Assembly (NCBI GenBank): GCA_903881565.1
Contig: CAIRTR010000126.1
Location: forward strand, 15,385 to 79,384
Length of the DNA: 64,000 nt
Direction: 5' to 3'
Source of the DNA: Oligoflexia bacterium
GTDB taxonomy: Bacteria > Bdellovibrionota > UBA1018
Position 1 is the first letter of the stretch, and each line of letters opens with the position of its first letter. This document shows, piece after piece, positions 13,893-63,540 of this stretch. Under the pieces are notes generated by a model. It saw only the letters and a program-made list of their open reading frames with translations, was not told the DNA's origin and ran no database searches. A program made the position numbers and the translations under genes.

Positions 13893-15975
13893 GTTCAGCG
13901 AAAAAAAACTGTGATCTCAAGGAACCCCCCGCCTGTTTTTGGTCAAGGGCACGCCAATGGCCATCAAAGCCTAGCTCCTTAGCCTTGACCCGATCATTCA
14001 TATAAGCAGGGAGCAATACCCCCGATATATAGCGATAAAGTCTTTCATCCAAAACGGGAAAAGCAAGCTCGAGTCTTGAAAAAAAGTTCCGAGGCATCCA
14101 ATCAGCGCTCGATAGGTAAAGTGCTTTTGAATTTTCAAAAAAATAAATTCGACTATGTTCTAAGAATCGATCCACGATACTCACGACACGAATATTCTCG
14201 CTTAACTTTTTCGCCCCAGGGACAAGGGCACAGGCTCCCCGAACGATCAGATCCACTTTAACCCCAGCTGATGACGCCTCATAGAGCTTCACAATCACTG
14301 CATGATCGACCAAAGTATTTACTTTTCCCACTATCCGGGCTGTTTTTCCCGCCTTTGCCGCAGTAATCTCCGCGTCGATTAATTGCAAAATTCTTCGATG
14401 AAGCTTAGCCGGAGCCGGCACAAGCCGTTTGAAAGTTTGGGGAACCTCCCCCTTTGCGACCGTATCGAAAAATTTGAGAGCGTCTTCGCCAATTTCGGGG
14501 TTAGCCGTTAAAATAGCAAGATCGGTATATTGTCTTGCGGTAATGGAGTTATAATTGCCCGTCGAAAGATGCGTGTAGAGCCTCACTCCACCTTCTTCTT
14601 TTCGTGAAACGAGAGCAATTTTGGCGTGAAGCTTAAGCTTTCCAAAGCCAAAAACGACTTCGATCCCCGCGTTTCGAAGCTCCTCGGCCAACCGTAAATT
14701 ATTGAGCTCATCAAACCGCGCCCGAAGTTCAATAACAACTCGAATCTTTTTACGCCCTGCCACTGACTTTAGCGCATCAATCACAGGAGACAACGCATCG
14801 ACTCGATAAACAGTTTGTTGAATCATACTCACGTCACTGTCCGCGCAAGCCTGACGAATCCAATTCACATAGGCATCAAACGAGTCATAGGGGTGATGCA
14901 AGAGCAGATCTCTCTTCTTAAGACTCTCAAATATTTTGTCATCAATGCGAAACTCTCTAGGCACCAGGCCCTTAATCGGAGCATGCAGTAATTCACGCTT
15001 CTTCAAGATCGATTCGGGAATCGTATTTAAAACAGACCAAAGTCCATTCAAACATAACGTTGCAGGCGTCTGAAAAATCTGCTGAGGACTCAGCCTCAGT
15101 GCCTTTTTCAAAAGCTCCTCAAAATGAGGAACCTTTACCCCTCGATGTTGAATTCGCACCGGACGACCTCGATCACGTTTTCTAAGACTGGAAAGCACCA
15201 CATCGGGAACGGATTCAGTGTCTTCCTCCTCAAGATCCACACTCAAGTCCGCATCGCGAGTAAACCGGAGAATTGAGATCTCCTCTTTTAGTCCAAAGGC
15301 TGCAGGAAGAAACTCCTGAAGTAAATGATCCAAAAAGAAAAAATAAACGCATGGTTCATTTTTGCTGTCACTACTCTGTGCCGTGAGAACACTTTTTAAC
15401 TTCTTAGGGATTCGAACAAACGAGCCAGCAGGAAAAACTGCTGCGAGCTGCAAATTATCAATCAATCCAATTTGCGCGGCACTCACCGCTTCTGGAGCGG
15501 ACAATTCGGGGAAAACGGTTTCGTAAAAGGCTTGTTTGGCCAAAGCGTAATAAGAATCAGTCTCACTGAGACTTGTCACAAAATGAAGGTGAAACCTGGA
15601 CAGCTCACGACTCAGGCTCTCAAGGGTTTGCGCTTGCTGCTGCTGAAACCGATTCATTTTGCCAAGAATGACCGAGCGAATGCGCCTAAGACGCCTCAGT
15701 TGCTTTTGTTCTCCGCGCCTAAGAGCGGTTGAAATGGAACGCCCCAGCGAGGCCATCCGGATCATAAAGAATTCGTCCAAGTTTGATGAAGTGATTGAAA
15801 GAAACTTCACCCGCTCAAGCAAAGGATTTTCTTTGAGGTTAGCCTCAGCCAAGACACGCGAATTAAACTCAAGCCAACTCAAATCCCTATGGATGAAGGG
15901 TTGAGCAGCATCAAGCAACATCGGCCGCAATTTGGGAGCAGGAGTAAACGAATCCATATCTGTACCGTGGCTCAT
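13849..15975 (-). CDS. ppk: polyphosphate kinase 1
   Basis: 708 aa. N-terminal RDLSWLEFNSRVLAEA, and two PLD-like HxK(x)4D regions (KLHAKIALV). Full-length PPK1 architecture. Confidence 0.9.
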   Translation of the reverse strand: MSHGTDMDSFTPAPKLRPMLLDAAQPFIHRDLSWLEFNSRVLAEANLKENPLLERVKFLSITSSNLDEFFMIRMASLGRSISTALRRGEQKQLRRLRRIRSVILGKMNRFQQQQAQTLESLSRELSRFHLHFVTSLSETDSYYALAKQAFYETVFPELSAPEAVSAAQIGLIDNLQLAAVFPAGSFVRIPKKLKSVLTAQSSDSKNEPCVYFFFLDHLLQEFLPAAFGLKEEISILRFTRDADLSVDLEEEDTESVPDVVLSSLRKRDRGRPVRIQHRGVKVPHFEELLKKALRLSPQQIFQTPATLCLNGLWSVLNTIPESILKKRELLHAPIKGLVPREFRIDDKIFESLKKRDLLLHHPYDSFDAYVNWIRQACADSDVSMIQQTVYRVDALSPVIDALKSVAGRKKIRVVIELRARFDELNNLRLAEELRNAGIEVVFGFGKLKLHAKIALVSRKEEGGVRLYTHLSTGNYNSITARQYTDLAILTANPEIGEDALKFFDTVAKGEVPQTFKRLVPAPAKLHRRILQLIDAEITAAKAGKTARIVGKVNTLVDHAVIVKLYEASSAGVKVDLIVRGACALVPGAKKLSENIRVVSIVDRFLEHSRIYFFENSKALYLSSADWMPRNFFSRLELAFPVLDERLYRYISGVLLPAYMNDRVKAKELGFDGHWRALDQKQAGGSLRSQFFFAELAEQEYAGTPLEIK

Positions 15976-45959: not shown

Positions 45960-48122
45960 TTAATTCATCGGCTCAGGACCATGCTCCGTCTTCAGCTGCG
46001 CCCAGAGGGTGGCTCGCAAAGTTTCCATTTTACGATCCCACTTTGCCCAGTCCAATTCACCCGAAAGGTCTTGGCGTACATGCACTTGCGATTCGTCCCA
46101 AAGCCTGACCAGCGCCCAAAGCTCGCTCGGGTTTACGCTCTGCGCCCCCCCGCCTTCAATGGACTTTATATGCCCATTTTCAGGCCAAAACGTTTCCAAG
46201 AAGGTCCATCCTGACTTTAAACTCAGCTTCAACACCGGCATTTGGGAGCGTTCATAGGCCCGAACCAAAGCGCGAAGACCCCAGATATTCGAAGACAGCG
46301 TCCGAGAGTTCGCTTGAGGGACATCCAACCGGTCGTAGAACCCACCGTCTGGGGCTTGCCCCTTGGCCGACATTTCTAAGGCCCCAACTTGCAAGGCATC
46401 GCCCAGCTTTGGAAGCACGGCAAGCAACTCAGCCGGCACGGCCGGATCATCACCTAATGTTGAATCCAACTCCGAAGCGGCAAGCAGCATCTTTGATACT
46501 CCACGCACCGACACACCCACCGGATCACGACCCGAGAGCCGCACGATCTCGTGAAACAAGACGCCCAGTGCCCCTTGTGCACTCCCAGGATCAGTCATCT
46601 CGACGTGCCCCTGCTGAGGTGCAATCAGATTTTTCAAAGCCCCTGCGAGAAGTCCGACCGCGAGCATTCGTCCATCACTTGGAAAAAGAATCGGGCTGGA
46701 TGCTTCGAGAATTTTTTCAAGTTGATCTGCGCCGCCAAAATGCTCCCAAAATGGCGTTCCGGGGCGAGTCAGCTTTAAAAAATCCAGCGACATCATCACC
46801 AGGTCCGCAACATCTCCGATGGCTTCATAAGGAGAGGAGCCGGGAGTGGCCTTTGGAATTCCCCTGGGCCCCATCATGAAAAGCGAAGGGAAAACGCGAA
46901 AGGCAGTAGGATGCGCTTCAGACGTCGGATCGTAGGCAGCAAAATCCCAAGGTGAAAACGAAAAGTCACCCGCCGATCCCTGCGCGCCCCAACCGCCAAA
47001 ATTGCCGGTTAAAAGTGGAGGGGCTTTTTCAGGATGTGAGAAATCCGCACCACCCCCTTGCGCAAATTCGATTCGCCCGCCCCGAATCACCGCCTCTTCG
47101 CCCCCATTGAGCACCAAAAGCTTATTGGCGGCTGAATAAAAGAGCGCGCCCGAGAGACCGCGCATTTTTGGGTCATCAGAACCCACAAGAAGCGCGGCAA
47201 GGCCCATGTCGGCGCGAACGCTCGAAGTATATTCCTTGAGACTTAGTTTTCCAAAGGAGGTGGGATCTAACTCAATCAAAGGCGTATGATCGGACCAGAT
47301 CGGATCCTCCTCGCCTTTGAACTTTTGAGAAACAAGCGCAGGAAAACCCGCAATTCGGCCTGCAATTTCATCTAAAAATCCCACTCTGAAAAGCGGGGGG
47401 AACTTCTTGGAAAATTCACGGCCCACTTGCTCCAGCACTTTGGGATCGCGACGGGCAGCCATCAGTTGTTCTTTGGCGGCGTTGAAAATGACTTTCCTTG
47501 CCTTGCAATTACTCGGTTCCAACCATGAATGGCCGCAGGTCAACTTGACCCAGGCTTTCGAAAATATACTGGGACTTTTAATTTTATCGGACTCGTCTAA
47601 TTCGCACTGCGGAGATTTTCCAGCCGCAATTTTCTTGGCCAGACAAAGTCCAATTTGATCAGCCGTCTCTTTTTGATCGGCCGGAACGGTCCCATTGACA
47701 ATGTTCGAGATCAGCCCTTCATCAAAGAGGGTTTCAAGATGAATCCGTTTCACCTCTTTTTCAAAATTCTCCTGATACGATTTTGCGTAAGCGGCGGGAT
47801 AAATATCCCCCATCTTCTGATTGAGCACGACGCCTAAAAAGGGAGCGGTTTTAATTTCGATGCTGCCTTCTGAAAAGGGCGCGGACAGTGGTCCAAGCGA
47901 TCCGCCTTTTCGGTAAGAACGCAAAAGGTTCGCGGCAAAGGCCTGCCGTTCTGTTGCACTCTCTCCCTTGGATTCAGGGTGAAGTCGCGCGTCTTCTAAA
48001 ATTCGATTCAACACCTCGCGCGCTTCACTCACGGAAACGCGAAGGTCATAGCCAAACGCCAAACTTGAAGCCAAAAACAGCGAAAATAGAGTGAAAAGGG
48101 GTAGAACCTGATATTTTTTCAT
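45960..48122 (-). CDS. large secreted hypothetical protein (720 aa)
   Basis: Has a signal peptide and is Gly/Ala-rich. No confident family. A possible all-alpha, glycosidase-like fold is only a guess. Confidence 0.4.
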   Translation of the reverse strand: MKKYQVLPLFTLFSLFLASSLAFGYDLRVSVSEAREVLNRILEDARLHPESKGESATERQAFAANLLRSYRKGGSLGPLSAPFSEGSIEIKTAPFLGVVLNQKMGDIYPAAYAKSYQENFEKEVKRIHLETLFDEGLISNIVNGTVPADQKETADQIGLCLAKKIAAGKSPQCELDESDKIKSPSIFSKAWVKLTCGHSWLEPSNCKARKVIFNAAKEQLMAARRDPKVLEQVGREFSKKFPPLFRVGFLDEIAGRIAGFPALVSQKFKGEEDPIWSDHTPLIELDPTSFGKLSLKEYTSSVRADMGLAALLVGSDDPKMRGLSGALFYSAANKLLVLNGGEEAVIRGGRIEFAQGGGADFSHPEKAPPLLTGNFGGWGAQGSAGDFSFSPWDFAAYDPTSEAHPTAFRVFPSLFMMGPRGIPKATPGSSPYEAIGDVADLVMMSLDFLKLTRPGTPFWEHFGGADQLEKILEASSPILFPSDGRMLAVGLLAGALKNLIAPQQGHVEMTDPGSAQGALGVLFHEIVRLSGRDPVGVSVRGVSKMLLAASELDSTLGDDPAVPAELLAVLPKLGDALQVGALEMSAKGQAPDGGFYDRLDVPQANSRTLSSNIWGLRALVRAYERSQMPVLKLSLKSGWTFLETFWPENGHIKSIEGGGAQSVNPSELWALVRLWDESQVHVRQDLSGELDWAKWDRKMETLRATLWAQLKTEHGPEPMN

Positions 48123-48299: not shown

Positions 48300-49649
48300 A
48301 TGCCCCCCCAGAACAGCGCCCGCAGAATTTTGACTGCTGCAGCATTAAGTCTTGGATTTTCCACGTCTTTATTCGCCGAAAGCGCTGCCGTGCTGCCTGA
48401 GGGGCGCTCCCGGATGACCTTCGTCTATGCGCAAGCCACCGGAATTACACAGACTTTCGATAATGACGGCAACATCCAAGGCCTAACCAAAGACTATAAT
48501 TTTGAGCTCAGTTCCTCGAAACTTAAGGACTTTGACTCTCGCCTCTCCAAGCTCGTTAACTTCTTAAATGCGACGGGTAAACGCTACGATACAAAGGTGC
48601 GTGAAAACGGCTTTTTCGGTATCACCCAGGATCCCACAGCCCCCCTGCTTGGGGATGCGCTCTCCTTGGGATATCTTAACGTCGGCGTCGAAGCCCAACG
48701 CCAAGAAGGAGTAGTCTCTCTTCAACATGGCGTGACCGATCAACTTACCGTTGCCATCATCGTCCCCACCCTTCGAACAAAAGTACACGTCACCCACTCG
48801 ATCACGGGAAACAACACGGCCAACGACATTTACAACGGATTTGTTTCAAACAACGCAGGCGTCTTACCTGATCTGCGAGACGCCCTGAATCTGGTCCGCA
48901 ACTTATCGGATGAAACTTTTCAATCCGTGCTTACCGATAAAGGATACGCGCGCGTTGAAGACTGGCAAGGCACAGGGTTAGGAGATATTCAGCTCCTCTC
49001 ACGCTACAATTGGCTAAAACTAGGAGCGGACAAAGATGTCCCGACCCAACCCGCAACATTCTTAGCGTCGTTTCAGGCCACCACGACCGCGCCTACGGGC
49101 AAGACCAAAGACCCTTCTGTTCTTACCCAAACCGATTTTGGGCAAGGATCTTGGGACACGGGCATCGCCCATATCATTAATGTGACCCCGTGGAACTGGA
49201 TCACGCTCTCGCAAGGAGTTCATTACACCCAACCCCTCTTTGGTCACAGGCTCCTTCGGGTCCGGGCAACTCCAGACGCCTTCATCCCTGATGCAGCCGA
49301 CGAAGAAGACGTCATTCAAAAATTAGGGACAAAAGAATCGCTCACTCTCGGCGGAGAACTTCATCTGACTTCATCACTAAGTTTAAGCTCAGATTACGAA
49401 TGGGCTTGGAAGCAACAAGATCGCTATACAGGCTCCAAAACAGATCGAGACTACACGTATCTCTCCGAAAAAACCGATACCTACACTGAAACGTTTGTCG
49501 TCGGGGTTTCGTTTTCAACCATCCCTGCGTTCTTAAAAAATGATTTCCCGCTGCCGCTTCAAATGGGCATCACAATCAATCTCCCTCACGTCGGTCGCAA
49601 TACGACGCTTGCGCCTTATGGGATGGCTGAATTGTCGATGGTGTTCTAG
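48300..49649 (+). CDS. putative outer-membrane beta-barrel protein
   Basis: 449 aa. Signal peptide, alternating amphipathic strands, and a C-terminal aromatic residue (…LSMVF), as seen in OMPs. Confidence 0.45.
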   Translation: MPPQNSARRILTAAALSLGFSTSLFAESAAVLPEGRSRMTFVYAQATGITQTFDNDGNIQGLTKDYNFELSSSKLKDFDSRLSKLVNFLNATGKRYDTKVRENGFFGITQDPTAPLLGDALSLGYLNVGVEAQRQEGVVSLQHGVTDQLTVAIIVPTLRTKVHVTHSITGNNTANDIYNGFVSNNAGVLPDLRDALNLVRNLSDETFQSVLTDKGYARVEDWQGTGLGDIQLLSRYNWLKLGADKDVPTQPATFLASFQATTTAPTGKTKDPSVLTQTDFGQGSWDTGIAHIINVTPWNWITLSQGVHYTQPLFGHRLLRVRATPDAFIPDAADEEDVIQKLGTKESLTLGGELHLTSSLSLSSDYEWAWKQQDRYTGSKTDRDYTYLSEKTDTYTETFVVGVSFSTIPAFLKNDFPLPLQMGITINLPHVGRNTTLAPYGMAELSMVF

Positions 49650-53985: not shown

Positions 53986-54465
53986 GTGAAATCGTTTCGA
54001 AATATTTTCGTTCTTATTGCATCAATGTTAACTCTCGTTTCATGCTTTGAAAAAGACAAGGCACCTGAAACCGCTGCCGCACCAGCTGCTACGGCAGAAG
54101 CTCAAAAAGGAGCGCCCGTGACCCAAGCTCAAACCGGAAATCCTGAACTCAAAAGTGAAGACCTCAAAGTCGGCACCGGGGCTGAAGCCGTGACGGGTAA
54201 AACCGTCTCCGTTCATTATACGGGCTGGCTCACGGATGGCAAAAAATTTGATTCTTCTTTGGACCGCAAAGAACCTTTCAAATTTCCACTCGGCGCAGGA
54301 CAAGTCATTCAAGGCTGGGACAAAGGCGTCGTCGGTATGAAAGTCGGCGGGAAACGTAAACTGACGATCCCTTCTGAAATGGGCTATGGCGCACAAGGCG
54401 CGGGCGGCGTGATTCCGGCTAACGCTACTTTGGTATTTGAAGTTGAACTTTTGGGGGTAGAATAA
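53986..54465 (+). CDS. FKBP-type peptidyl-prolyl cis-trans isomerase lipoprotein
   Basis: 159 aa. Lipobox LTLVSC. The FKBP domain includes [18 protein letters not shown]…[20 protein letters not shown]…GYG. Confidence 0.8.
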
Positions 54466-54466
54466 A

Positions 54467-54706
54467 ATGTCCGAAGCAGAAGCACCAAAAAATGAATGTC
54501 TTGTAGTGGCATCAAAAGTGAAGAATTACATTCGCGAAAGCTCGCAGCTCAACACTTCGGCTGCCGTGATGGATATTCTTTCGGCTCAGGTTAAATCCCT
54601 GTGCGATAAAGCCGTCGAAAATGCAAAAAAAGACGGAAGAAAAACGGTGATGGACCGAGATTTTCCCGGCTTTGGAGGCAGTGAAGAACCCGCCGCTTCT
54701 TGCTAA
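54467..54706 (+). CDS. histone-fold DNA-binding protein (archaeal HMf-like / bacterial histone)
   Basis: 79 aa. It aligns by eye to archaeal HMfB: LVVASKVKNYIRE with LPIAPIGRIIKDA, and CDKAVENAKKDGRKTVMDRDF with ASEAIKLARHAGRKTIKAEDI. The alpha3 helix looks truncated, as reported for Bdellovibrio histones. It starts 2 nt after the FKBP stop and is followed by a strong terminator. Confidence 0.65.
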   Translation: MSEAEAPKNECLVVASKVKNYIRESSQLNTSAAVMDILSAQVKSLCDKAVENAKKDGRKTVMDRDFPGFGGSEEPAASC

Positions 54707-54715
54707 ATGAATTGT

Positions 54716-54752
54716 GACCCGTTCCGGGATTCCGGGACGGGTCTTTTTTTTT
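54716..54752 (+). terminator. Rho-independent terminator after the histone-fold gene
   Basis: gacccgttccgg-gat-tccgggacgggtc followed by T9, read directly from the sequence. Confidence 0.75.
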
Positions 54753-54782
54753 GCGGTTTCTTTAAAACTCACCCAAAATCTC

Positions 54783-55826
54783 ATGACCTTTACCTTAATT
54801 CTCTTCATCACCGTCGCCGTTTTGTTTGACTTCATGAACGGCTTCAACGACAGCGCCAATATCGTTTCAACGATGATCTCCTCTCGCGCGCTTTCTCCCC
54901 GGCAAGCCCTCACCATCACGGCCATCGCTGAATTTATCGGGCCCTTTTTATTTGGGGTGGCGGTTGCTAAAACGATTGGTTCCGGTGTCCTTACCTTGCC
55001 CTCTGACGCTGCCACAGCCCTGCCCCTGATTCTCTCCTCCCTCGTGGCAGCCGTGTGCTGGAACATCCTGACGTGGCACTCTGGCATACCGTCAAGTTCC
55101 TCCCATGCGCTCATTGGCGGACTGCTCGGCGCTGCGATCTCGCACAGTACCATTGTTCACCTGGAAAAAGGGATCGTGACGTTGCAGGATTTTTACAGTA
55201 TTTTTGAAGTTGTCAAAATTTCAGGCCTCATCAAAATCGTGACCTCGCTGCTTATTTCTCCGGCTGTGGGATTTATTGCGGGATTTTTACTCCTCAAGCT
55301 TTTTCGTTTTCTAGCGCGAGGCTCTAGCCCCGCGATCAATGTATTTTTCAAAAAAGGCCAAATCATAACTGCCGTCGGTCTTGCGCTCTCTCATGGCACC
55401 AACGACGCGCAAAAGACGATGGGGATCATCACCATGGGACTCTTGGCTACGGGCCAGATCCATGAGTTTCAGGTGCCCATGTGGGTCGTCGCTTTGAGTG
55501 CAAGCGCCATCGCTTTAGGAACCTCCGTGGGTGGCTGGAGACTCATTCGCACTCTTGGCTCCGGATTCTTTAGAATTCGTCCCATCGATGGGTTTTCCAC
55601 CCAAATTGGCTCAGGCTTGGTGATTGTTTGCGCCTCTCTCTTAGGCGGTCCCGTGAGCACCACACAAGTGGTGTCCACCGCCATCATGGGGGTGGGAAGC
55701 GCGGACCGGATGTCGAAAGTCCGCTGGGGCGTGAGCAAGCAAATCATTATTACTTGGATTATTACCATTCCCTGCACTTCGGTTCTTGCAGGGCTACTCT
55801 ATCTTGCAATGAGGAAAACACTATGA
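54783..55826 (+). CDS. inorganic phosphate transporter of the PiT family
   Basis: The family N-terminus MTFTLILFITVAVLFDFMNGFNDSAN (GxNDxAN signature) starts at the ATG at 54783, not the ORF-track start at 54714. A second GTNDAQK repeat is present. Confidence 0.8.
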   Translation: MTFTLILFITVAVLFDFMNGFNDSANIVSTMISSRALSPRQALTITAIAEFIGPFLFGVAVAKTIGSGVLTLPSDAATALPLILSSLVAAVCWNILTWHSGIPSSSSHALIGGLLGAAISHSTIVHLEKGIVTLQDFYSIFEVVKISGLIKIVTSLLISPAVGFIAGFLLLKLFRFLARGSSPAINVFFKKGQIITAVGLALSHGTNDAQKTMGIITMGLLATGQIHEFQVPMWVVALSASAIALGTSVGGWRLIRTLGSGFFRIRPIDGFSTQIGSGLVIVCASLLGGPVSTTQVVSTAIMGVGSADRMSKVRWGVSKQIIITWIITIPCTSVLAGLLYLAMRKTL

Positions 55827-56452
55827 GTTGGTTCAATGATTTTCTAAAACCCCGAAAAGACAATTTTCGCGAATACCTGATTCAACAAGCGCAAATCGGA
55901 GTCGTGGGACTTGAGGGCCTGGTCGCCTATATGAAGAACCCGACCCCCGAAAACGAAGAGCGCGTGAATCGGGCCGAAAAAGATGGCGACGAAGTCAGGC
56001 GTATTCTCATCGATGATTTGTCCCGCACCTTTGTCACCCCCATTGACCGCGAAGATATCTTCAAACTTTCGCGCGCCGTGGATGATTTGCTGGATTATGC
56101 CCACTCCACCGTGGACGAAATGGTCGTTTTAAATGTGAGTCCCACCGAACATCTCGTCAGCATGGCCACCATGCTGCTTGAAGCTTCGCGGGAAATTCTA
56201 TTGGCCCTCCAACGCATTGAGCGTCACCCGGCGGTCGCCAGCGAGCATGCTCGCAAAGCCAAGCGTTTTGAGAACAACGTCGAAAAAACCTATCGCAAAG
56301 CCATTGCGGAGCTCTTTACCGAAACTGAAAACGCACCCGAAATCGTGCGCATGTTAAAGAAGCGTGAAGTCTACCGGCATCTTTCCAATGCGGCGGACAG
56401 AGCGGATGAGGCGGCGAACATTATCGCGGATATCGTGGTTAAAACGACATGA
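55823..56452 (+). CDS. DUF47 / PhoU-like PiT accessory protein (TIGR00153 family)
   Basis: GAGG-N8-ATG at 55823 overlaps the pit stop (ATGA). The ORF-track ORF extends upstream in an overlapping frame. The sequence is helical and PhoU-like, and this family is typically pit-adjacent. Confidence 0.7.
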   Translation: MSWFNDFLKPRKDNFREYLIQQAQIGVVGLEGLVAYMKNPTPENEERVNRAEKDGDEVRRILIDDLSRTFVTPIDREDIFKLSRAVDDLLDYAHSTVDEMVVLNVSPTEHLVSMATMLLEASREILLALQRIERHPAVASEHARKAKRFENNVEKTYRKAIAELFTETENAPEIVRMLKKREVYRHLSNAADRADEAANIIADIVVKTT

Positions 56453-56910
56453 ATCACGCGGTCAATCCAAAGATCGCTGAGTGGATTCGCAGCGAGGCTC
56501 ATAACCTCTTAGCCCCCCCTCCCCTAGCTCTCGCGATTTTCGGCTCTTTCGCTAGAGGTGACCAGGGACCCGATAGTGACCTAGATATATTGCTTGTATG
56601 CGATGAGATCGGACGCAGCCCCTCCCTCCGATCTAAATGGTTTTTCCCCTTAAGCAAGAAGTTGCGTGAGCAAACTCAATTCCCTGAGCTTCCAAAGGCG
56701 ATTTCACCCCTGATTTTAAGTTCTCAAGGATGGCAAGATGCCCTCCATCTGCAACTCTCTCTATGCACAGAGGCTTGTGTTTTGTTGGATTCTGGGTTGC
56801 TCAGTTCGACATTTGCAAGTGCGCAGGAACTCATTCGCAAAGGCGAATGGAAAAGGGTTCCAACACCCGATCACGGCTTCTTTTGGATCCCTAAGGATAA
56901 AATCGCATGA
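56449..56910 (+). CDS. minimal nucleotidyltransferase (MNT) antitoxin of a HEPN/MNT module
   Basis: 153 aa. GSFARGDQGPDSDLDILLV, the Pol-beta-type NTase motif GS-x9-DxD. Overlaps the upstream stop (ATGA). Confidence 0.75.
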   Translation: MNHAVNPKIAEWIRSEAHNLLAPPPLALAIFGSFARGDQGPDSDLDILLVCDEIGRSPSLRSKWFFPLSKKLREQTQFPELPKAISPLILSSQGWQDALHLQLSLCTEACVLLDSGLLSSTFASAQELIRKGEWKRVPTPDHGFFWIPKDKIA

Positions 56911-57278
56911 CGCCTTCACAGAAAACCCGGGCTGATTATTTGCACCGCTCGGCAATCCGGGTTGCGCTTGAAGCCAAGGAAAATGCAGTAAAAAAAGAGT
57001 TCGATCGAGTCATCCGAAAGACGCACGAGGCACTCGAACTTTTGTTTAAGGGGCTTTTAATTGAACAAGGTATAGAACCCGCCAAAACTCATGATCTAAG
57101 TCAACTCTACCAGCGAATTGCCAATCCAAAATTTCAACTTCAGGAAGATGATCTTACCTTCCTGACGGAACAACGCATCCCTGCGTTCTATGGCGCGCCC
57201 GATTTTGTCCCAGACGAAGATTATAGCGATGAAGATTGTAGCCGCTGCTTGTCTTTGCTGGCTGCTGCGGGGCTTTAA
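56907..57278 (+). CDS. HEPN-domain toxin of the HEPN/MNT module
   Basis: 123 aa, all-alpha. R-x5-H (RVIRKTHEA) fits the HEPN Rx4-6H motif. A 4-nt overlap with the MNT gene is the typical TA gene arrangement. Confidence 0.65.
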   Translation: MTPSQKTRADYLHRSAIRVALEAKENAVKKEFDRVIRKTHEALELLFKGLLIEQGIEPAKTHDLSQLYQRIANPKFQLQEDDLTFLTEQRIPAFYGAPDFVPDEDYSDEDCSRCLSLLAAAGL

Positions 57279-57847
57279 TACCGAAAACAGCCCACCCAAT
57301 GATCATTCACCATCCCCACGGCTTGCATGTGAGCATAGATGATCGTGGACCCCACGAACTTAAACCCACGCTTCTTCAAATCCTTGCTGAAAGCGTCTGA
57401 CTCAGGAGTGGTTGCCGGTATATCTCCCAGGCCGCGACGTCGATTAACAATCGGCGCGCCCTTCACAAAACTCCAACCATAAGCATCAAATGAGCCAAAT
57501 TCTTTTTGGACTTTTATGAACGCCTGGGCGTTTGTGATCGCGGATCTGATCTTAAGCTGGTTGCGAATAATCCCAGGATCCTTCATGAGTCGCTGCACAT
57601 CGCGCTCCCCAAGGCGCGCGACTTTTTCAACTTTAAAATCACAGAAGGCCTTGCGATACCCCTGCCGCCTTTTCAAAATCGTAAACCAACTCAAGCCCGC
57701 TTGCGCCCCTTCTAAGATAAGAAACTCAAAGAGTTTACGATCGTCATGAACAGGAACGCCCCATTCTTCATCATGATACTTGATGTAAAGAGGATCTGAG
57801 AGGCACCAGCGGCAGCGTTTAAGATCAATTCGTTTTTTTGTGGCCAT
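57275..57847 (-). CDS. tag: DNA-3-methyladenine glycosylase I
   Basis: The ORF-track ORF extends to 58030. The family N-terminus MATKKRIDLKRCRWCLSDPLYIKYHDEEWGVP (Zn-binding CxxC) starts at the ATG at 57847. The downstream motif is LILEGAQAGLSW. Confidence 0.8.
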   Translation of the reverse strand: MATKKRIDLKRCRWCLSDPLYIKYHDEEWGVPVHDDRKLFEFLILEGAQAGLSWFTILKRRQGYRKAFCDFKVEKVARLGERDVQRLMKDPGIIRNQLKIRSAITNAQAFIKVQKEFGSFDAYGWSFVKGAPIVNRRRGLGDIPATTPESDAFSKDLKKRGFKFVGSTIIYAHMQAVGMVNDHWVGCFRY

Positions 57848-58114
57848 GCGTCTCTTAACCTTTCCGATTGCCTTGATAGATTGGGTCCAAATTACAAAAG
57901 CGTCAACCTTTTCAACGCCAGTGCAGAAACTCTCGGTGAGAGCTGTCGGGGACACCCTCTCTGGGGCCCGTTCAATCGGTGTCGGCAAATATTTTCTGAA
58001 AAACGAATACGACGCTCTACATATTCTCACCCTAACAGCTGGGCAGACGGAACTTTGAACGACACCCGAGCCTCCCCGGGCTAAATCGCGCCACAGGCAG
58101 ACAGTTAAACGATA

Positions 58115-58143
58115 TTGACATCGATAACGATCTCGTTTAACAT
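58115..58143 (+). promoter_or_regulatory. sigma70-like promoter TTGACA-17-TAACAT for vapBC, embedded in a 9-bp inverted repeat (GTTAAACGA…TCGTTTAAC). It would give a leaderless or near-leaderless transcript, with the ATG 6 nt after the -10.
   Basis: Read directly from the sequence. The inverted repeat spanning the -35 and spacer is the kind of operator bound by antitoxin-toxin complexes. Confidence 0.45.
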
Positions 58144-58149
58144 GTATCC

Positions 58150-58362
58150 ATGACAGTCAAAGTCTCTCCCAAGTACCAAGTCGTCATCCCCGAAGCAGTC
58201 CGAACTGCCCTGGGCATTCGCGCTGGATCTCAAATCGAAGTGATCGCCAAAGGGAAAGTGGCTTACCTCGTGCCTCTTCAAAGTCTTGAAGACTTGCAGA
58301 CCGAACTTGCAAATAGTTTGAACAATAAAAACCTTCGTGAAAAGAAGGACCGCGCGTTGTGA
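58150..58362 (+). CDS. vapB: AbrB/MazE/SpoVT-family antitoxin (VapB-like)
   Basis: 70 aa. MTVKVSPKYQVVIPEAVRTALGIRAGSQIEV has the swapped-hairpin beta-barrel signature. Overlaps vapC by 4 nt. Confidence 0.7.
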   Translation: MTVKVSPKYQVVIPEAVRTALGIRAGSQIEVIAKGKVAYLVPLQSLEDLQTELANSLNNKNLREKKDRAL

Positions 58363-58739
58363 GCTTGTGCTTCGTCTTGGATTCTTCAGTTTGGATTGAA
58401 CTGCTCAATAAAGGCCCACTCCTCAAGGAATGCACAAAAGTCCTGAAGAATGCTCAGCGAATTATCGTACCTACTCTCGTTCTTTTCGAGGTTTATAAGA
58501 AAATAGCCGCGTGCCACACAGAAGACCAGGCCCTCTCCGCAATCGCACTTTTGAGTCAACACGAGGTGATGGACATGACTCGTGAAATCGCATTAGCCGC
58601 AGCTGACCTCTCGCTCCAAAAGCGATTAGCGATGGCCGATAGCATTGTCCTTGCACATGCGCAACAGAGCGGAGCCGTACTTGTTACCCTGGACAATGAT
58701 TTTGTGGGCATTTCAGATACCCAGGTTATTCGAGGCTAA
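58359..58739 (+). CDS. vapC: PIN-domain ribonuclease toxin VapC
   Basis: 126 aa. Acidic PIN residues are present (LDSSVWIE…, …LAMADSIVLAHA…, TLDNDF). Confidence 0.75.
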   Translation: MSLCFVLDSSVWIELLNKGPLLKECTKVLKNAQRIIVPTLVLFEVYKKIAACHTEDQALSAIALLSQHEVMDMTREIALAAADLSLQKRLAMADSIVLAHAQQSGAVLVTLDNDFVGISDTQVIRG

Positions 58740-58745
58740 TAAAAG

Positions 58746-59921
58746 CTAGACGTAATCCCCGCGCTTGATCTTCTCCAAGATAATCTTCTCAGGCATGATC
58801 GGATCCCTGGGATCAACAGTAAAATAAGCCTGCTGCTCACAACGACGTTTATGCGTCAGCAACCATTTTAAGATCGCGGCCAATCCTTTGTTACGCTTAT
58901 CTTTGAAGAACGGATCGTTCGCGAGCGCATCCGAGGCCTTTTTCAGAGCGCGCACTTCTTGAGCGTCGTTTTCTTTTACCGGATAATCGGCCAGATCGTA
59001 CTTCTTAATATCTTCGGGCAACACGCCCAGGAACTTCACATCGGGCGCGCTAAAATCCGAGTTTCGAATCAAGCTTGAGGCCGAACCGGCCTTCAGGGTT
59101 CTGAAAATGTTCTGCATGGTGTACGCGTCGAGATCCCCCCAGAAAAAGAGCGGGATTTTGAGCTGATCTTGAATCGTCTTACTCCAGGCGCGCACGGCGT
59201 TTGAAGGAACCCCCCCCGAACCAATGAGAATACAATTGTTGCGCTTCGTAAACCCGTTGACGACCAACGTATTGGCCGTACCTTCGGATTCAATAATGAT
59301 GGCGAAATCAATTTTCTTTTTAGCCGTGAGCTTCAACTTCTGCGGCCTATTTTTGGGCTGAAAGGGTGAAGTCCCCATCTTGGACAAATCAATCACAGCC
59401 TTCTCACCATCGGACATCGTCTCGGTGACGATCAAATGCTGAGAATAGGTCTGCCCGCCACGATCGTTGGCGTAGCAATTAAACTCTTCGCGATAACACT
59501 CCAGCATCTCACAGATGAAGTCGATGATCTCATCGGACTCATCTTGCGAACCAAAGTCCAAAGGCCTAAGGCTCGGATTATGCTTAATTTCCCCTTTGGA
59601 CATGTAGTACAATTCGCGTTTCGTATTAACGGCGCCGGTTTCAATGTTTCGCAGCAGAATCTCAAGGAGGAAAATTGCTCGCGACATCTTCTTCACCGAA
59701 CTCACATTGAGCTCGGTCGCCACTTTTTTAGGACCTGGCGTGAGATAACCCACCTTAAAATCATAGCGTGAGTTATCCAGCGAACACTTGGTCGCCCTCA
59801 GCACCGGGCGCTTTGCTTTTTCGAGATCCGCTAAAAGCAGGCTGCACATCTCACGGCTTAAATTTGGAATACTATCTTCGGATTTATGCGACTTATTGGA
59901 TCGCGATGATTCAAGAGCCAT
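58746..59921 (-). CDS. type IIB DNA topoisomerase subunit A (Top6A/Spo11 homologue) with a winged-helix and a Toprim domain
   Basis: 391 aa. The catalytic-Tyr motif RELYYMS fits Top6A (R-E-[IL]-Y-Y). The Toprim acidic residues are in IIIESEGT and GDLDAYT (DxD). It lies 5 nt downstream of the Top6B gene. Confidence 0.8.
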   Translation of the reverse strand: MALESSRSNKSHKSEDSIPNLSREMCSLLLADLEKAKRPVLRATKCSLDNSRYDFKVGYLTPGPKKVATELNVSSVKKMSRAIFLLEILLRNIETGAVNTKRELYYMSKGEIKHNPSLRPLDFGSQDESDEIIDFICEMLECYREEFNCYANDRGGQTYSQHLIVTETMSDGEKAVIDLSKMGTSPFQPKNRPQKLKLTAKKKIDFAIIIESEGTANTLVVNGFTKRNNCILIGSGGVPSNAVRAWSKTIQDQLKIPLFFWGDLDAYTMQNIFRTLKAGSASSLIRNSDFSAPDVKFLGVLPEDIKKYDLADYPVKENDAQEVRALKKASDALANDPFFKDKRNKGLAAILKWLLTHKRRCEQQAYFTVDPRDPIMPEKIILEKIKRGDYV

Positions 59922-59926
59922 GAATT

Positions 59927-61714
59927 TTATTTCCCCTTAGCCTTTTTTGAGACTTTTTTCTTGGATTCTTTTGCGGATTCTTTTTTGCCCTTTTTAACAG
60001 GCTTATCTTCAGAACCCTCCAACTCCTCAGCGCCTTCTGAGTCTGGCCCCTCCGATGGCGCCGGCGGCGGCGGAAGTGATGGCGCCTCCGTGACCTTCGC
60101 AGCCTCGAGCAGCGCGTGCGCTTTATCAAGTTCCTGTTGAGTCGCGTGAGCGTCGCGTCCAAGCAACTTCAACAACCCCTCTTCGGCGCGTTTTTTGCGC
60201 GCTTCTGATGCCGAAGTTATCCTGCACAACCCCTCCACCAAAATCGGCCCAAACTGCTCGATGTGGCGAATCTTCTCTTCCAGCTCGTTCGCCTTGACTT
60301 CGCGACGGATATGCTTAGAGAGCCGTTGCCCGGCTTGAATCAAGGCTCGGCGAATCTCTTCAACGAGTTCGTCTGATCCATCAATCGTTTCTTTAGAGGC
60401 ATTCTTAAACTTGATGAACGGCGAGACCACGCTCACCGCCATAATATAGGGACCTAAGGGGAGCCCATCTTTGGGTTGCGCAAGACCATAGGCACGCCAA
60501 TTTACGGACTCAATGGCGTGAACAATGGCGCAAGCGGATTTATCAAACTGCAACGGCACTCGGTTGGCAAAGCGCAAAATCTGCGCGGGCGTTTCATGCT
60601 CCTGCGCTTTTTCTTCAAGCCGAGCCACCGCCACTTCAATCTGCACGGGTTTGAAATCACAAATCGTAGGTTTACGAGAAACCACCGCGAAAAAATCCAC
60701 GGCGCCCAATCGCTTGATACTCTTAGCCAGCGTTTCTTCGCCAACCGAAAGCACCGACTTCGTCGAAGGCGCCATGAGCTTCAGATTTTGGAGGGCAATA
60801 AAAAGTTCCTTAAAATCCGCGTCGCCGATCGCGTCCACCGATTTATCCAGCACGCCTCTCTTGATCCCGGCCTTCACCAGGTCATTCAAAACACCTTCAT
60901 GAATCCGGGAAAATCCCTTCTTGAGCCAGGCTTCGATTTTGACTCGCCCAAATAAATGGGAGTGGGACATGAACTCTCCCAGCTTCATCGTATGCGGGTG
61001 CGGCGCCGTGGCTTCAGGGAGTTCCGGGATCGCATCACTCACTCGCGTAACGGTATGGGGCTCAAGCTCGGGCAACTTATAATGCAAGGTCAGATGAGGA
61101 TTCACGAGCGCGGTGCCATTCAAATAATTAAGCAAACCCGCATCGCCATTAAGCTGAACGCGACCATCCACCAAGAACTCAACGGATGTGCCATGAGGCC
61201 TGTCCCAATCAATGGTTTCTTTTTCTTTAAGGTGTCCCCGATTATTTTTGATATCGACTTCAACCAGACAGGACATCGCTTTGCGCATCGACTCAGTTTT
61301 CGTAATCACTCTTGCGCCCACGGCACTGGTCAATTGCGCCCAAGTCGTCGCCGCTGAAATCCCGATCCCTTGCTGTCCACGGGAGCAGCGACCCTTGCCA
61401 AATTTTGAGGAGGCCAAATACTCGCCAAACACTTTGGGGACGTCATCCACGTCGATCCCAGGCCCGTTGTCTACGACGCGAATTCGAATCTGATCCGCAT
61501 TCTTAAGAGATCCCTGCCCCACTTTTTCAACGAGAACAGAAACCTCAGGGAGAATTCCCGACTCTTCGCAGGCATCAAGCGCGTTATCGACCGATTCTTT
61601 TAAGGTCGTCAACACCGCTTTCGTTTGTGAAGAGAAGCCGACTTGTTGTAAGTTTTTTGAGAAATATTCCGCCGTACTACTCGAGGTAATTTTTGCATTT
61701 GCCTTGCTTGCCAT
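59927..61714 (-). CDS. type IIB DNA topoisomerase subunit B (Top6B homologue), a GHKL/Bergerat-fold ATPase with a transducer domain and a K-rich C-terminal tail
   Basis: 595 aa. N-box ESVDNALDACEE, G1 box VVDNGPGI, G2 box SRGQQGIGIS. Overall length and order match Top6B. The last 50 aa or so are P-, E- and K-rich (KKGKKESAKESKKKVSKKAKGK). Confidence 0.8.
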   Translation of the reverse strand: MASKANAKITSSSTAEYFSKNLQQVGFSSQTKAVLTTLKESVDNALDACEESGILPEVSVLVEKVGQGSLKNADQIRIRVVDNGPGIDVDDVPKVFGEYLASSKFGKGRCSRGQQGIGISAATTWAQLTSAVGARVITKTESMRKAMSCLVEVDIKNNRGHLKEKETIDWDRPHGTSVEFLVDGRVQLNGDAGLLNYLNGTALVNPHLTLHYKLPELEPHTVTRVSDAIPELPEATAPHPHTMKLGEFMSHSHLFGRVKIEAWLKKGFSRIHEGVLNDLVKAGIKRGVLDKSVDAIGDADFKELFIALQNLKLMAPSTKSVLSVGEETLAKSIKRLGAVDFFAVVSRKPTICDFKPVQIEVAVARLEEKAQEHETPAQILRFANRVPLQFDKSACAIVHAIESVNWRAYGLAQPKDGLPLGPYIMAVSVVSPFIKFKNASKETIDGSDELVEEIRRALIQAGQRLSKHIRREVKANELEEKIRHIEQFGPILVEGLCRITSASEARKKRAEEGLLKLLGRDAHATQQELDKAHALLEAAKVTEAPSLPPPPAPSEGPDSEGAEELEGSEDKPVKKGKKESAKESKKKVSKKAKGK

Positions 61715-61747: not shown

Positions 61748-62785
61748 TCAATGAACGTCAGAGGGAGATTGGTCAGGACCCAAAAGAATTTCGAGCGTCA
61801 CGACAAAAAGCGCCGCGACAATAGGGCCCAAAAAAATCCCCATGAAACCCAGAGTCTGTATGCCCCCTAATGCGGCAATAAAAGCGAGCATCGGGTGAAG
61901 GTTGGCCGAGCCTCGCAAGAACATCGGACGAATCAAATTATCAATCGCGGTAATGAAAAAAGAAGCAATCAGAAGTGCCACTGCAGCCCCTGTCCGACCC
62001 TCAATAAATTGTTGAGCCGCCACCCCCAAGGTTACCGGCGCGCTCCCCACCACAGGGATAAACGAGGAAACAAAAACCAACAGGGCAATCAAAAACACAT
62101 TGGGAGTCCCCGTCGAAACACAAACAATCGATTCAAGAACAGCTTGAATGCCCCCTGATACGATGGAGGCCAAAATCACGGATCGGCAAGTTCCCGCCAA
62201 AACATCCAGCAGTCGCTCGGTTTCACGCGCACTGAAAACCGAATTGCTGCGAAAAAAACTCACCAGCCGCGGACCATCTGCCAGGAAAAAATAGAGACTC
62301 ACTACCGTCACCGCAAACCCCATGGCCATCCCGGGAAGCTGTGTCACCAGCGCGCCCAACATATCGGCAAGTTTAACGCCAACACTTCGAGTCAGTTCCT
62401 GCGCGGTTTCGATGAAACTTTCTTTATCTACCGGGAGCCAGGAGCTCGAAATATCAATCATCTGCTGAATTCGGGGCGTATTCATCAATGCTTCAACCCA
62501 GCTTCCACCTGACCTTGGGGTATCTTTCCAGGCTTGCAATTCATGCACGCCCGATTTAGCGCCAAAAAAGAGAAGCGACGCACTTGGAAAAAGAATCAGG
62601 AGTGTAATACTGGACGTCAAAAGTGCGGAACCGGTGGCGCGGGAAATTTTGAAGCGAGACATCCAATCCAAAGTGGAAAGAAACAAGACTGCAAGAACAG
62701 CTCCCATAATAACGGGAATAATGAGCGGTGATCCTACATAGAGGAAAAGACAAAGCACGACTACGGCGAAAAGCTTGCGTTGCAT
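61748..62785 (-). CDS. AI-2E family transporter (PerM/YhhT/UPF0118)
   Basis: 345 aa with about eight TM helices. Typical AI-2E topology and a Gly-rich C-terminal helix. Confidence 0.65.
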   Translation of the reverse strand: MQRKLFAVVVLCLFLYVGSPLIIPVIMGAVLAVLFLSTLDWMSRFKISRATGSALLTSSITLLILFPSASLLFFGAKSGVHELQAWKDTPRSGGSWVEALMNTPRIQQMIDISSSWLPVDKESFIETAQELTRSVGVKLADMLGALVTQLPGMAMGFAVTVVSLYFFLADGPRLVSFFRSNSVFSARETERLLDVLAGTCRSVILASIVSGGIQAVLESIVCVSTGTPNVFLIALLVFVSSFIPVVGSAPVTLGVAAQQFIEGRTGAAVALLIASFFITAIDNLIRPMFLRGSANLHPMLAFIAALGGIQTLGFMGIFLGPIVAALFVVTLEILLGPDQSPSDVH

Positions 62786-62866: not shown

Positions 62867-62892
62867 AGTTAGACGATAACAGGAGGGTCATC

Positions 62893-63540
62893 ATGTTCTC
62901 AAAATATAGCCACTTAGGTTTCGTTTTTCTTTTTGCTCTTTGCATTAATTCCACTCAGGTAAAAGCGGCTGCAGGTACAGACGACACGCCCCCTGAAGAA
63001 ACAGTCATGGCGCACGTTGCCACGTCTTATCCTGAAAACTACACCGGTCTCATCACGGTTCAATGGGAAGGCGAAGCTCTCAGGAGCAAAATTGCCCGCT
63101 TTGTTTTTTCAGATAGTCGAAATACCCACATCGTTTACACCCCTGAAGATCTTAACAAAGGTGTCATTCTGGTACATACCCTTGGAAAAGACATCCTCTT
63201 CATCAAAGGGACAACCTTTTCGGCCGAGGTGGGCGGGCCCATGGTCCTTACGTTCTCCAAAACTTTTTTTGCCAACGACCAGAGAACGGTGACCTTCGAC
63301 TTCGTTCGCACGAATCGGCAGCCTCCTGAAGAGGGCCGCGAAGAGTCTCCGACTTGGGTTCTCCAAACGGATGACCGCGAGGGTCATGACCCCTTTGACT
63401 CACTTTTCATCGAAGTCTACAAGAAGCTCGGGATCCCAAGCGGGGTTTCGAAAATACAACTTATTGATCGAGGGAGCCTGATCCGAAATTATGATCCCCA
63501 AAATCTTCCCAGAGTGGGACGCCTCCGCCGCCGCCGATAA
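62893..63540 (+). CDS. hypothetical secreted protein
   Basis: AGGAGGG lies 6 nt upstream of the ATG at 62893. The ORF-track start at 62839 is probably too early. Signal peptide MFSKYSHLGFVFLFALCINSTQVKA. The C-terminus is Arg-rich (RLRRRR). Confidence 0.45.
   Translation: MFSKYSHLGFVFLFALCINSTQVKAAAGTDDTPPEETVMAHVATSYPENYTGLITVQWEGEALRSKIARFVFSDSRNTHIVYTPEDLNKGVILVHTLGKDILFIKGTTFSAEVGGPMVLTFSKTFFANDQRTVTFDFVRTNRQPPEEGREESPTWVLQTDDREGHDPFDSLFIEVYKKLGIPSGVSKIQLIDRGSLIRNYDPQNLPRVGRLRRRR

Follow-up and report, generated by a model that had tools for sequence, protein, structure and literature searches.

Organization of the top6 locus

The 64-kb window (the whole stretch of DNA analyzed here) carries on its minus strand two adjacent genes, top6B and top6A, for the two subunits of a putative DNA topoisomerase VI (Topo VI) (Table 1). 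The coordinates and lengths given for both genes in a preliminary description of this DNA were exact on recheck, as were the motifs that it listed: ESVDNALDA (residues 40 to 48), DNGPGI (82 to 87), and GQQGIG (113 to 118) in Top6B and RELYYMS (102 to 108) with the Toprim residues E211 and D263-x-D265 in Top6A. The start codon of top6A lies 5 nt past the stop codon of top6B, and the sequence AAGGGGA is present ahead of it, within the 3' end of top6B, which suggests that the two genes are coupled in translation. The rest of the window is ordinary chromosome, with genes such as ppk and ppx and those for a photolyase, an MCP, and a histidine kinase. Its five open reading frames of at least 590 aa encode PPK, the histidine kinase, a protein with a weak UPF0489 match, an unidentified protein, and Top6B; no type IIA topoisomerase gene was found within the 64 kb.

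Table 1. Features at and around the top6 genes (positions in the window)
Feature	Position	Strand	Description
FKBP gene	53986-54465	+	Convergent to top6A
Bd0055-type bacterial histone gene	54467-54706	+	Convergent to top6A; matches 8cmp and 8fvx at E ~1e-15
Genome-specific insertion block	54714-58739	.	Pit (PHO4), PhoU_div, MNT, HEPN, tag, VapB, VapC; between the histone gene and top6A
MNT	56449-56910		Pfam
HEPN	56907-57278		Pfam
tag, 3-methyladenine glycosylase (Adenine_glyco)	57275-58030		Pfam
MazE-type antitoxin (VapB)	58150-58362		Pfam
PIN (VapC)	58359-58739		Pfam
top6A	58746-59921	-	391 aa; winged-helix/5Y-CAP with catalytic Tyr, and Toprim
top6B	59927-61714	-	595 aa; GHKL ATPase, H2TH region, transducer, C-terminal helix, low-complexity tail
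Top6B tail codons (residues ~545-595)	59930-60082	-	Acidic/proline-rich linker, then lysine-rich end (KPVKKGKKESAKESKKKVSKKAKGK); read from the translation
AI-2E family transporter gene	61748-62785	-	345 aa; Pfam AI-2E_transport, 122.9 bits
Candidate sigma-70-like promoter	62873-62902	-	TTGAGA-18-TATCGT, extended TG, 9/12 matches; upstream of the AI-2E/top6B/top6A run; consensus match only

Identification of the Top6A and Top6B subunits

Top6A exceeds the Pfam cutoffs for both of its domains, with 54.6 bits for TP6A_N (cutoff, 26) and 118.8 bits for TOP6A-Spo11_Toprim (cutoff, 24.1). The NCBIfam model NF003335 matches the protein over its full length with 397.9 bits, 26 bits short of the equivalog cutoff of 424, and the other NCBIfam subfamily models give at most 159 bits. 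The closest solved structure is that of M. jannaschii Top6A (PDB ID 1d3y; 113.6 bits), in which chain positions 31, 35, 129, 181, and 183 correspond, by position count, to R102, Y106, E211, D263, and D265. These are presumably R99, Y103, E197, D249, and D251 of the M. jannaschii protein, provided that the first residue of the construct is residue 69. All five residues are invariant across 71 Top6A homologs of the clade. The TP6A_N score and the alignment of R102 and Y106 identify a winged-helix (5Y-CAP) domain with the catalytic tyrosine and its partner arginine, and the Toprim score together with the alignment of E211, D263, and D265 identifies the Mg2+ ligands E...DxD.

The preliminary description had considered that the catalytic tyrosine might prove not to be aligned or that the 391-aa protein might belong to another Toprim family, such as JetD/MksG. 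The tyrosine is aligned, and the JetD/MksG identity was rejected: JetD models yielded only partial Toprim matches of 13 to 17 bits, whereas the Top6A models of Pfam scored 119 and 55 bits and that of NCBIfam 398 bits. No SMC-like or kleisin genes (jetABC/mksBEF) were found near the pair.

For Top6B, HATPase_c gives 39.4 bits (Pfam; cutoff, 26.4), Topo-VIb_trans gives 152 bits over the whole model (positions 1 to 159; Pfam; cutoff, 24), and the NCBIfam equivalog PRK04184 gives 502 bits (cutoff, 274). The ATPase thus scores as Top6B and not as a MORC or HSP90 protein, the alternative that had been raised for this subunit. Its closest solved structure is that of M. mazei Top6B (2q2e_B; 299 bits), to which it aligns without a break over residues 7 to 485; the S. 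shibatae protein (2zbk_B) matches over residues 5 to 520 with 183 bits. E40, N44, D82, and K441 correspond, by position count in the alignment, to S. shibatae E38, N42, D76, and K427, and these four residues, together with G84, G86, and G113 to G118, are invariant in 77 homologs of the clade. HATPase_c, E40, N44, D82, and the glycine-rich lid identify the GHKL/Bergerat ATP-binding fold, while Topo-VIb_trans and the alignment of K441 to K427 identify a transducer with its switch lysine, the residue that contacts the gamma-phosphate of ATP. The H2TH domain, which is absent from type IIA enzymes, lies between the GHKL domain and the transducer; in Top6B, it would correspond to residues ~236 to 315, a region through which the HMMER alignments to 2q2e_B and 2zbk_B are unbroken. 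With the Pfam Topo VI models passed and the catalytic residues aligned with those of the archaeal structures, profile and alignment evidence confirms the earlier claim that the pair encodes a complete type IIB topoisomerase.

The C terminus of Top6B ends in a low-complexity tail, the final 30 residues of which include 13 lysines and arginines versus 5 aspartates and glutamates. The tail is too short for the Ig-like C-terminal domain of M. mazei Top6B, and the alignment to 2q2e_B does not extend past residue 485. A tail reaching at least 55 aa past the conserved GLxKLLGRD motif is present in 38 of 78 Top6B proteins of the clade, 33 of which end net-basic (about 40% of the clade); the remaining proteins end about 45 to 60 aa beyond residue 500. 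The lysine-rich tail, previously described as unusual for archaeal Top6B, is real and has no archaeal counterpart, but other members of the clade carry such a tail too. It is probably an accessory tether that binds DNA nonspecifically, analogous to the basic tails at the C terminus of actinobacterial topoisomerase I. Its acidic-then-lysine-rich arrangement makes it a candidate DNA-binding element that could easily be tested.

Conservation and composition of the pair

A search of species-representative genomes located 513 sites that encode Top6 relatives. The best 80 of these 513 loci (L001 to L080), on which all synteny counts are based, show 62 to 84% identity and come nearly all from uncultured Bdellovibrionota/Oligoflexia. 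In 79 of these 80 loci, top6B and top6A are adjacent, the remaining locus being too short to show the arrangement. Orthologs more than 80% identical are already labeled "DNA topoisomerase VI" in public records. Between orthologs, pN is 0.12 to 0.22 against a saturated pS of ~0.8, so that dN/dS is at most about 0.05; the pair is under strong purifying selection. Topo VI had been presented as only sporadic in bacteria, which is true overall but misleading for this lineage, since a large clade of Bdellovibrionota retains the pair.

Outside the clade, the identity of Top6B is at most 39%, the nearest nonclade relatives standing at ~35 to 39% in a search of 50%-identity representatives. Methanolinea is among the representative clusters matched by this search. 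The outgroup comparison covered the gene context of the two nearest outgroups and the ranking of scores against the solved archaeal structures.

The comparison of GC and codon usage that had been proposed was run against 33 genes of the window, with GC, GC3, and codon-usage distance as measures. The codon-usage distance is 0.100 for top6B and 0.152 for top6A, against a window background of 0.110 ± 0.021; top6A thus lies about 2 SD off the window mean, and top6B gives no signal. The composition of the pair is native, and a compositional island was rejected on the same three measures.

Gene neighborhood

The AI-2E transporter gene that had been noted beside the pair has the same orientation and precedes top6B by 33 nt; it is possibly cotranscribed with top6B and top6A. 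A homolog is present upstream of top6B in 22 of the best 80 of 513 loci, directly adjacent in ~10, and the proximity of the two genes is local synteny. A sigma-70-like promoter is predicted ahead of this run (Table 1); since the region contains seven such sites where 4.2 ± 1.8 would be expected, it constitutes weak evidence.

Downstream, the MNT/HEPN, vapBC, and tag genes are present where the preliminary description placed them, vapC and top6A being convergent with only 6 nt between their stops (58739 and 58746). However, the accessory or defense island that was read from this bracketing by toxin-antitoxin (TA) modules does not survive comparison: Pit, PhoU, MNT, HEPN, tag, VapB, and VapC are found by tblastn (E ≤ 1e-5) in none of the best 80 of 513 loci, so that the argument from context fails. 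In relatives, the slot between top6A and the histone gene holds variable, mostly metabolic content (globin, HD, AstB, ABC-F, kinase, and methyltransferase genes). In the window, this variable slot has received a local insertion, the TA modules, tag, and Pit/PhoU, which is unrelated to the enzyme and no part of it.

On the other side of the slot, the histone-fold gene reported to lie ~4 kb away is separated from the end of top6A by 4.0 kb; its product matches the structures of B. bacteriovorus Bd0055/HBb. Among the best 80 of 513 loci, an FKBP gene lies downstream of top6A in 27 and a histone gene in 17, at distances of -6 nt to 6.7 kb, and a jackhmmer search of all open reading frames of these 80 loci found no histones beyond the 17 from tblastn. 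Sixteen of the 17 histone-linked loci fall among L001 to L034, and in the tier of 62 to 72% identity (L035 to L080), there is no linkage except in L074. FKBP and the histone are conserved downstream neighbors of the operon in close relatives.

Interpretation of the locus

The pair is very probably a chromosomal, vertically inherited housekeeping Topo VI of uncultured Bdellovibrionota, orthologous to Bd2864/Bd2865 of B. bacteriovorus. Of the two readings offered previously, that of a housekeeping decatenase is supported by the adjacency of the genes in 79 of the best 80 of 513 loci, the invariant catalytic residues, and the native composition; the identity of the enzyme was upheld as well, whereas co-option for defense or plasmid maintenance was not. 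We infer the orthology through Pseudobdellovibrionaceae MAG loci (L059 to L073), whose Top6B and Top6A are 65 to 69% and 74 to 79% identical, respectively, to the window proteins. B. bacteriovorus is known to encode Topo VI (PMC11318664; PMC11302465), and this locus therefore represents a correct annotation rather than a discovery.

A mechanism can be proposed from homology to archaeal enzymes of known structure. Two subunits of each kind, Top6B and Top6A, would assemble into an A2B2 heterotetramer. ATP binding would cause the GHKL domains to dimerize and the T-segment to be captured, and the transducer, with its switch lysine K441, would pass the signal to the Top6A dimer. Y106 and the Toprim Mg2+ site (E211, D263, and D265) would then cut both strands of the G-segment with a 2-nt stagger, and the T-segment would pass through the break.

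The enzyme is most likely the main decatenase and positive-supercoil relaxase of the cell, alongside gyrase. Bacteria with Topo VI all have gyrase, and only those of the Pseudomonadota and Terrabacteria have ParC/ParE (PMC11302465). The text of Allen and Maxwell (2024) thereby implies the absence of Topo IV from B. bacteriovorus (PMC11302465), and we extend their statement on Topo VI bacteria outside these two groups to the phylum; Topo VI would substitute for Topo IV. An E. coli parE ts mutant is reported to be complemented by the Topo VI of M. mazei (unpublished data cited in PMC11302465). Within Bdellovibrionota, Topo VI is not sporadic but a strongly conserved core gene, present in hundreds of genomes at species level, and this conservation lends support to the view that it stands in for Topo IV in the phylum. 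The literature searched contained no enzymology of any bacterial Topo VI, which makes this clade a reasonable source of enzyme.

In addition to its housekeeping role, Topo VI could be functionally coupled to chromatin made of the Bd0055-type histone, for example by resolving the topology of histone-coated DNA, on which the lysine-rich tail would help. The conserved downstream neighbor of the operon in the closest relatives is indeed a bacterial histone gene (0 to 6.7 kb from top6A in 17 of the best 80 of 513 loci, with FKBP in 27), and this proximity persists despite repeated insertions into the slot; moreover, a separate family, the "IHF histones" of Omnitrophota and others, has been drawn beside Topo VI-like genes (Fig. 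7 of PMC11390915). We nonetheless consider such a coupling unlikely. The top6A and histone genes are convergent and therefore not cotranscribed, and nearly all loci in which they are linked (16 of 17, within L001 to L034) belong to the closest relatives, as plain synteny inertia predicts. In B. bacteriovorus HD100, the linkage is absent by locus tag, Bd0055 and Bd2864/5 being far apart (PMC11318664). Since top6 and the histone are both probably phylum-wide, their co-occurrence is uninformative.

It is very improbable that a "chromatin island" of Topo VI and histone was recently transferred from archaea into this genome. Topo VI is archaeal in origin, and its nearest solved relatives are euryarchaeal (M. 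jannaschii for Top6A, M. mazei for Top6B), but the identity of at most 39% outside the clade leaves no recent donor, and synonymous divergence is saturated in a clade that comprises hundreds of species-level genomes. In the window, just 4 kb separate the histone gene from top6A, and in several relatives the two are directly adjacent; however, its product is of the bacterial Bd0055 type, its B. bacteriovorus counterpart lies far from Bd2864/5 by locus tag (PMC11318664), and neither GC and GC3 nor codon usage is foreign. If Topo VI was transferred at all, this was an ancient event that dates to the base of the clade or earlier, and the proposed lateral acquisition of "archaeal-like chromatin genes" can be kept only in that form.

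Least probable of all, and rejected after the PADLOC and synteny comparisons, is a Topo VI-derived module that belongs to an accessory island and was co-opted together with the neighboring TA systems for defense or for plasmid or chromosome maintenance: although MNT/HEPN and VapBC both lie within 2.3 kb of the pair, with vapC ending next to top6A, and PADLOC gives a weak match of MNT to the candidate defense models PDC-S09 and faint JetD matches of the Top6A Toprim (Top6B has no match in PADLOC), no TA, tag, or Pit gene accompanies the conserved pair in any of the best 80 of 513 loci, JetD scores at most 17 bits against 398 bits for the NCBIfam model, and strong purifying selection and native composition oppose co-option.

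Comparison with known systems

Topo VIII/mini-A and JetD (Wadjet) share Toprim and winged-helix ancestry with Top6A, but their genes reside on plasmids or in defense loci, and the H2TH/Topo VI transducer signature is missing from them. The window pair is distinguished from JetD by its scores, JetD models giving at most 17 bits and Topo VI models 55 to 502 bits.

In Myxococcota, a Topo VI (Polyangiaceae MAG locus L085) is also encoded by an operon with the B gene ahead of the A gene, among housekeeping genes (sucCD and ndk), yet its Top6B is 37% and its Top6A only 24% identical to the window proteins. Indeed, this Top6A is less similar to the window Top6A than is that of M. jannaschii, in line with the separate bacterial Topo VI clusters proposed by Allen and Maxwell (PMC11302465).

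The archaeal enzymes (1d3y, 2q2e, and 2zbk) share the domain order and every catalytic residue with the window pair. Compared with M. mazei Top6B, the window protein lacks the Ig-like C-terminal domain and instead has a 50-aa low-complexity, acidic-then-basic tail.

Finally, the Topo VI of B. bacteriovorus (Bd2864/Bd2865) is the same two-gene type IIB enzyme in the same phylum. In contrast to Bdellovibrio, the lineage of the window is uncultured and Oligoflexia-like, and its Top6B bears the long lysine-rich tail found in about 40% of the clade.

Identity and organization of the topoisomerase pair

Judged by its sequence, the top6B-top6A pair encodes a genuine and intact Topo VI with a housekeeping role in an uncultured Bdellovibrionota bacterium. 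Both subunits exceed the Pfam gathering thresholds, Top6A with TP6A_N (54.6 bits) and TOP6A-Spo11_Toprim (118.8 bits) and Top6B with HATPase_c (39.4 bits) and the full Topo-VIb_trans model (152 bits). Top6B scores 502 bits on the NCBIfam equivalog PRK04184 (cut-off, 274), and Top6A matches NF003335 over its full length with 397.9 bits, 26 bits below the model cut-off. The nearest solved structures are Methanocaldococcus jannaschii Top6A (1d3y, 113.6 bits) and Methanosarcina mazei Top6B (2q2e_B, 299 bits, unbroken over residues 7 to 485); S. shibatae Top6B gives 183 bits. Counting positions through the structure alignments, Top6A R102, Y106, E211, D263, and D265 align with 1d3y chain positions 31, 35, 129, 181, and 183, which, presuming that the construct begins at residue 69, are M. 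jannaschii R99, Y103, E197, D249, and D251. Likewise, Top6B E40, N44, D82, and K441 correspond to S. shibatae E38, N42, D76, and K427. The complete type IIB topoisomerase proposed in the preliminary description is thus borne out by Pfam, NCBIfam, and structure alignments alike: profile scores and catalytic-residue alignments place Top6A outside the non-topoisomerase Toprim families, with its tyrosine aligned, and Top6B apart from MORC- or HSP90-like ATPases.

The ORF coordinates proposed earlier for both subunits match the ORF list exactly, the quoted motifs are all present (ESVDNALDA at 40-48, DNGPGI at 82-87, and GQQGIG at 113-118 in Top6B; RELYYMS at 102-108, E211, and D263-L-D265 in Top6A), and domain matches recover the named neighbors.

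Features of the topoisomerase region (window coordinates)
Feature	Position	Strand	Remarks
top6B	59927-61714	-	595-aa ORF
top6A	58746-59921	-	391-aa ORF
AI-2E transporter gene	61748-62785	-	345 aa; upstream of top6B/top6A, same strand
MNT (NTP_transf_2) + HEPN	56449-57278		Domain matches
tag (Adenine_glyco)	57275-58030		Domain match
MazE-type antitoxin + PIN toxin	58150-58739		Domain matches
Histone-fold gene	54467-54706		Weak in Pfam; matches Bd0055/HBb structures

Only 5 nt separate the top6B stop from the top6A ATG, and AAGGGGA lies inside the end of top6B, which suggests translational coupling. The AI-2E stop lies 33 nt from the top6B start, no convincing terminator was found between the three genes, and a sigma-70-like sequence (62902-62873; a consensus match only) lies upstream of the AI-2E gene.

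Conservation and descent

Searching 5.8 billion proteins gave 2,613 matches; the best 120 all share 79 to 84% identity with Top6A, and those that carry a name are called "DNA topoisomerase VI" and come from Bdellovibrionales, Oligoflexia, or Bdellovibrionota MAGs. Top6B relatives occur in 513 stretches (one genome per species), the best 80 of which show 62 to 82% identity and come nearly all from Bdellovibrionota-type MAGs. In 79 of these 80 loci top6A follows top6B; the exception, L022, stops about 260 bp past the Top6B match. Across near-full-length homologues (71 of Top6A, 77 of Top6B), the nine catalytic residues aligned to solved structures are invariant. By Nei-Gojobori counting relative to the window genes, pN is 0.12 to 0.22 and pS is saturated at about 0.8, with dN/dS at most about 0.05. 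GC and GC3 are near those of 33 other window genes, codon-usage distances are 0.100 (top6B) and 0.152 (top6A) versus 0.110 ± 0.021 for those genes, and gene content is that of an ordinary chromosome (ppk, ppx, photolyase, MCP, histidine kinase). Among library representatives clustered at 50% identity, those inside the clade match Top6B at 51 to 74% and those beyond it at 39% or less, an abrupt drop. Together, the adjacency, invariance, purifying counts, composition, and identity gap indicate, at the sequence level, that top6B/top6A is a core gene pair that is old and vertically inherited rather than a sporadic recent acquisition.

The nearest outside representatives include a Methanolinea cluster and a Polyangiaceae MAG (L085), whose B-then-A operon adjoins sucCD and ndk. 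The Polyangiaceae Top6A is 24% identical to that of the window, below the similarity of M. jannaschii Top6A, which fits the bacterial Top6A cluster located near Methanococcales (Allen & Maxwell 2024, PMC11302465).

Five near-identical Bdellovibrionota-type operons (L029, L049, L054, L055, and L058; 69 to 72% Top6B identity) carry WWE3, Nitrospiraceae/Nitrospira, Lysobacteraceae, or Nitrosovibrio MAG labels; wrong binning or labelling, not transfer, is the probable cause. Outside the clade, the closest protein resembling Top6B (P0129, L083 8001-9659; 39% identity, 552 aa) lies among RuvC, DEAD helicase, RecA/Rad51, DnaB, and numerous ORFs lacking a Pfam match, flanks resembling a phage or MGE replication/recombination module. 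The 391-aa ORF just upstream has no Top6A homology (BLASTP E=0.18) and no Pfam match, and P0129 may be a solitary ATPase of the Top6B type, carried by a mobile element.

Genomic neighborhood

The preliminary description gave weight to the toxin-antitoxin neighbors and allowed for co-option in defence or plasmid maintenance. The slot between the histone gene and top6A (54714-58739) does hold Pit/PhoU_div, MNT/HEPN, tag, and VapBC, with vapC ending 6 nt from the top6A stop. However, Pit, PhoU_div, MNT, HEPN, tag, VapB, and VapC have matches in none of the best 80 of 513 related loci, and the slot in relatives contains unrelated genes (Bac_globin, HD domain, AstB, ABC-F, histidine kinase, methyltransferase, ThiF). 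The "defence-island" setting is therefore accidental, particular to this genome, and uninformative on topoisomerase function. PADLOC yields only partial JetD Toprim matches of 13 to 17 bits for Top6A and none for Top6B. Neither co-option nor the weight given to the toxin-antitoxin neighbors is supported by these comparisons. Conserved neighbors are the AI-2E transporter upstream (22/80) and, downstream and convergent to top6A, FKBP (27/80), a HAD hydrolase, and a Bd0055-type histone (17/80).

Slot size in relatives ranges from 0 to 6.7 kb, with Bac_globin often adjoining the histone. Phosphate and polyphosphate genes are numerous in the window, with ppk1 and Ppx/GppA genes near each other (11899-15975) and the Pit/PhoU_div pair at 54714-56452. 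ORFs 45960-48122(-) (720 aa) and 48300-49649(+) (449 aa) lack any Pfam match at E≤1e-5.

The window histone matches Bd0055/HBb structures 8cmp and 8fvx (E of about 1e-15). Across loci having both genes, it lies -6 nt to 6.7 kb from the top6A end. In the closest relatives (L001, L004, L019, L030, and others) it is the immediate convergent neighbor, overlapping top6A by 6 nt in L030 and 171 nt away in L019; the 4-kb separation in the window (54706 versus 58746) is due to inserted genes. FKBP directly precedes the histone gene in the window (53986-54706) and closest relatives. The literature searched contains no description of this synteny; Topo VI-like genes are drawn, without comment, beside the operons of "IHF histones" from other phyla (Schwab et al. 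2024, PMC11390915).

The Top6B tail and relation to known Topo VI enzymes

After the conserved GLxKLLGRD... helix, window Top6B extends by 74 aa, ending in an acidic, proline-rich stretch and then KPVKKGKKESAKESKKKVSKKAKGK. Extensions of 55 aa or more occur in 38 of 78 clade proteins (33 of the 38 net-basic at the end), members of the more distant Pseudobdellovibrionaceae tier among them; the remaining clade proteins stop soon after the helix. The tail thus reads as a recurrent, low-complexity feature of variable length in the bacterial clade. Actinobacterial Topo I carries lysine-rich tails, and by analogy we infer that the Top6B tail could act as a non-specific DNA tether. The solved archaeal Topo VI enzymes have no equivalent of this tail, which is also distinct from the Ig-like CTD of M. 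mazei Top6B, a domain reported absent from bacterial Top6B (Allen & Maxwell 2024, PMC11302465).

Topo VI is listed for 17 bacterial families, Pseudobdellovibrionaceae included, and every one of them also has gyrase; ParC and ParE are confined to the families from Pseudomonadota and Terrabacteria, and Topo VI was proposed to act as the decatenase in the absence of Topo IV (Allen & Maxwell 2024, PMC11302465). The window enzyme would probably serve as the cell's decatenase and relaxase of positive supercoils, alongside gyrase. Topo VI of this kind is already known and annotated in public data, and our additions are modest: lineage-wide conservation, the K-rich tail, and histone synteny. In Bdellovibrio bacteriovorus, Topo VI (Bd2864, with Bd2865) is an unusual feature of chromosome biology beside the histone (FEMS review, PMC11318664).
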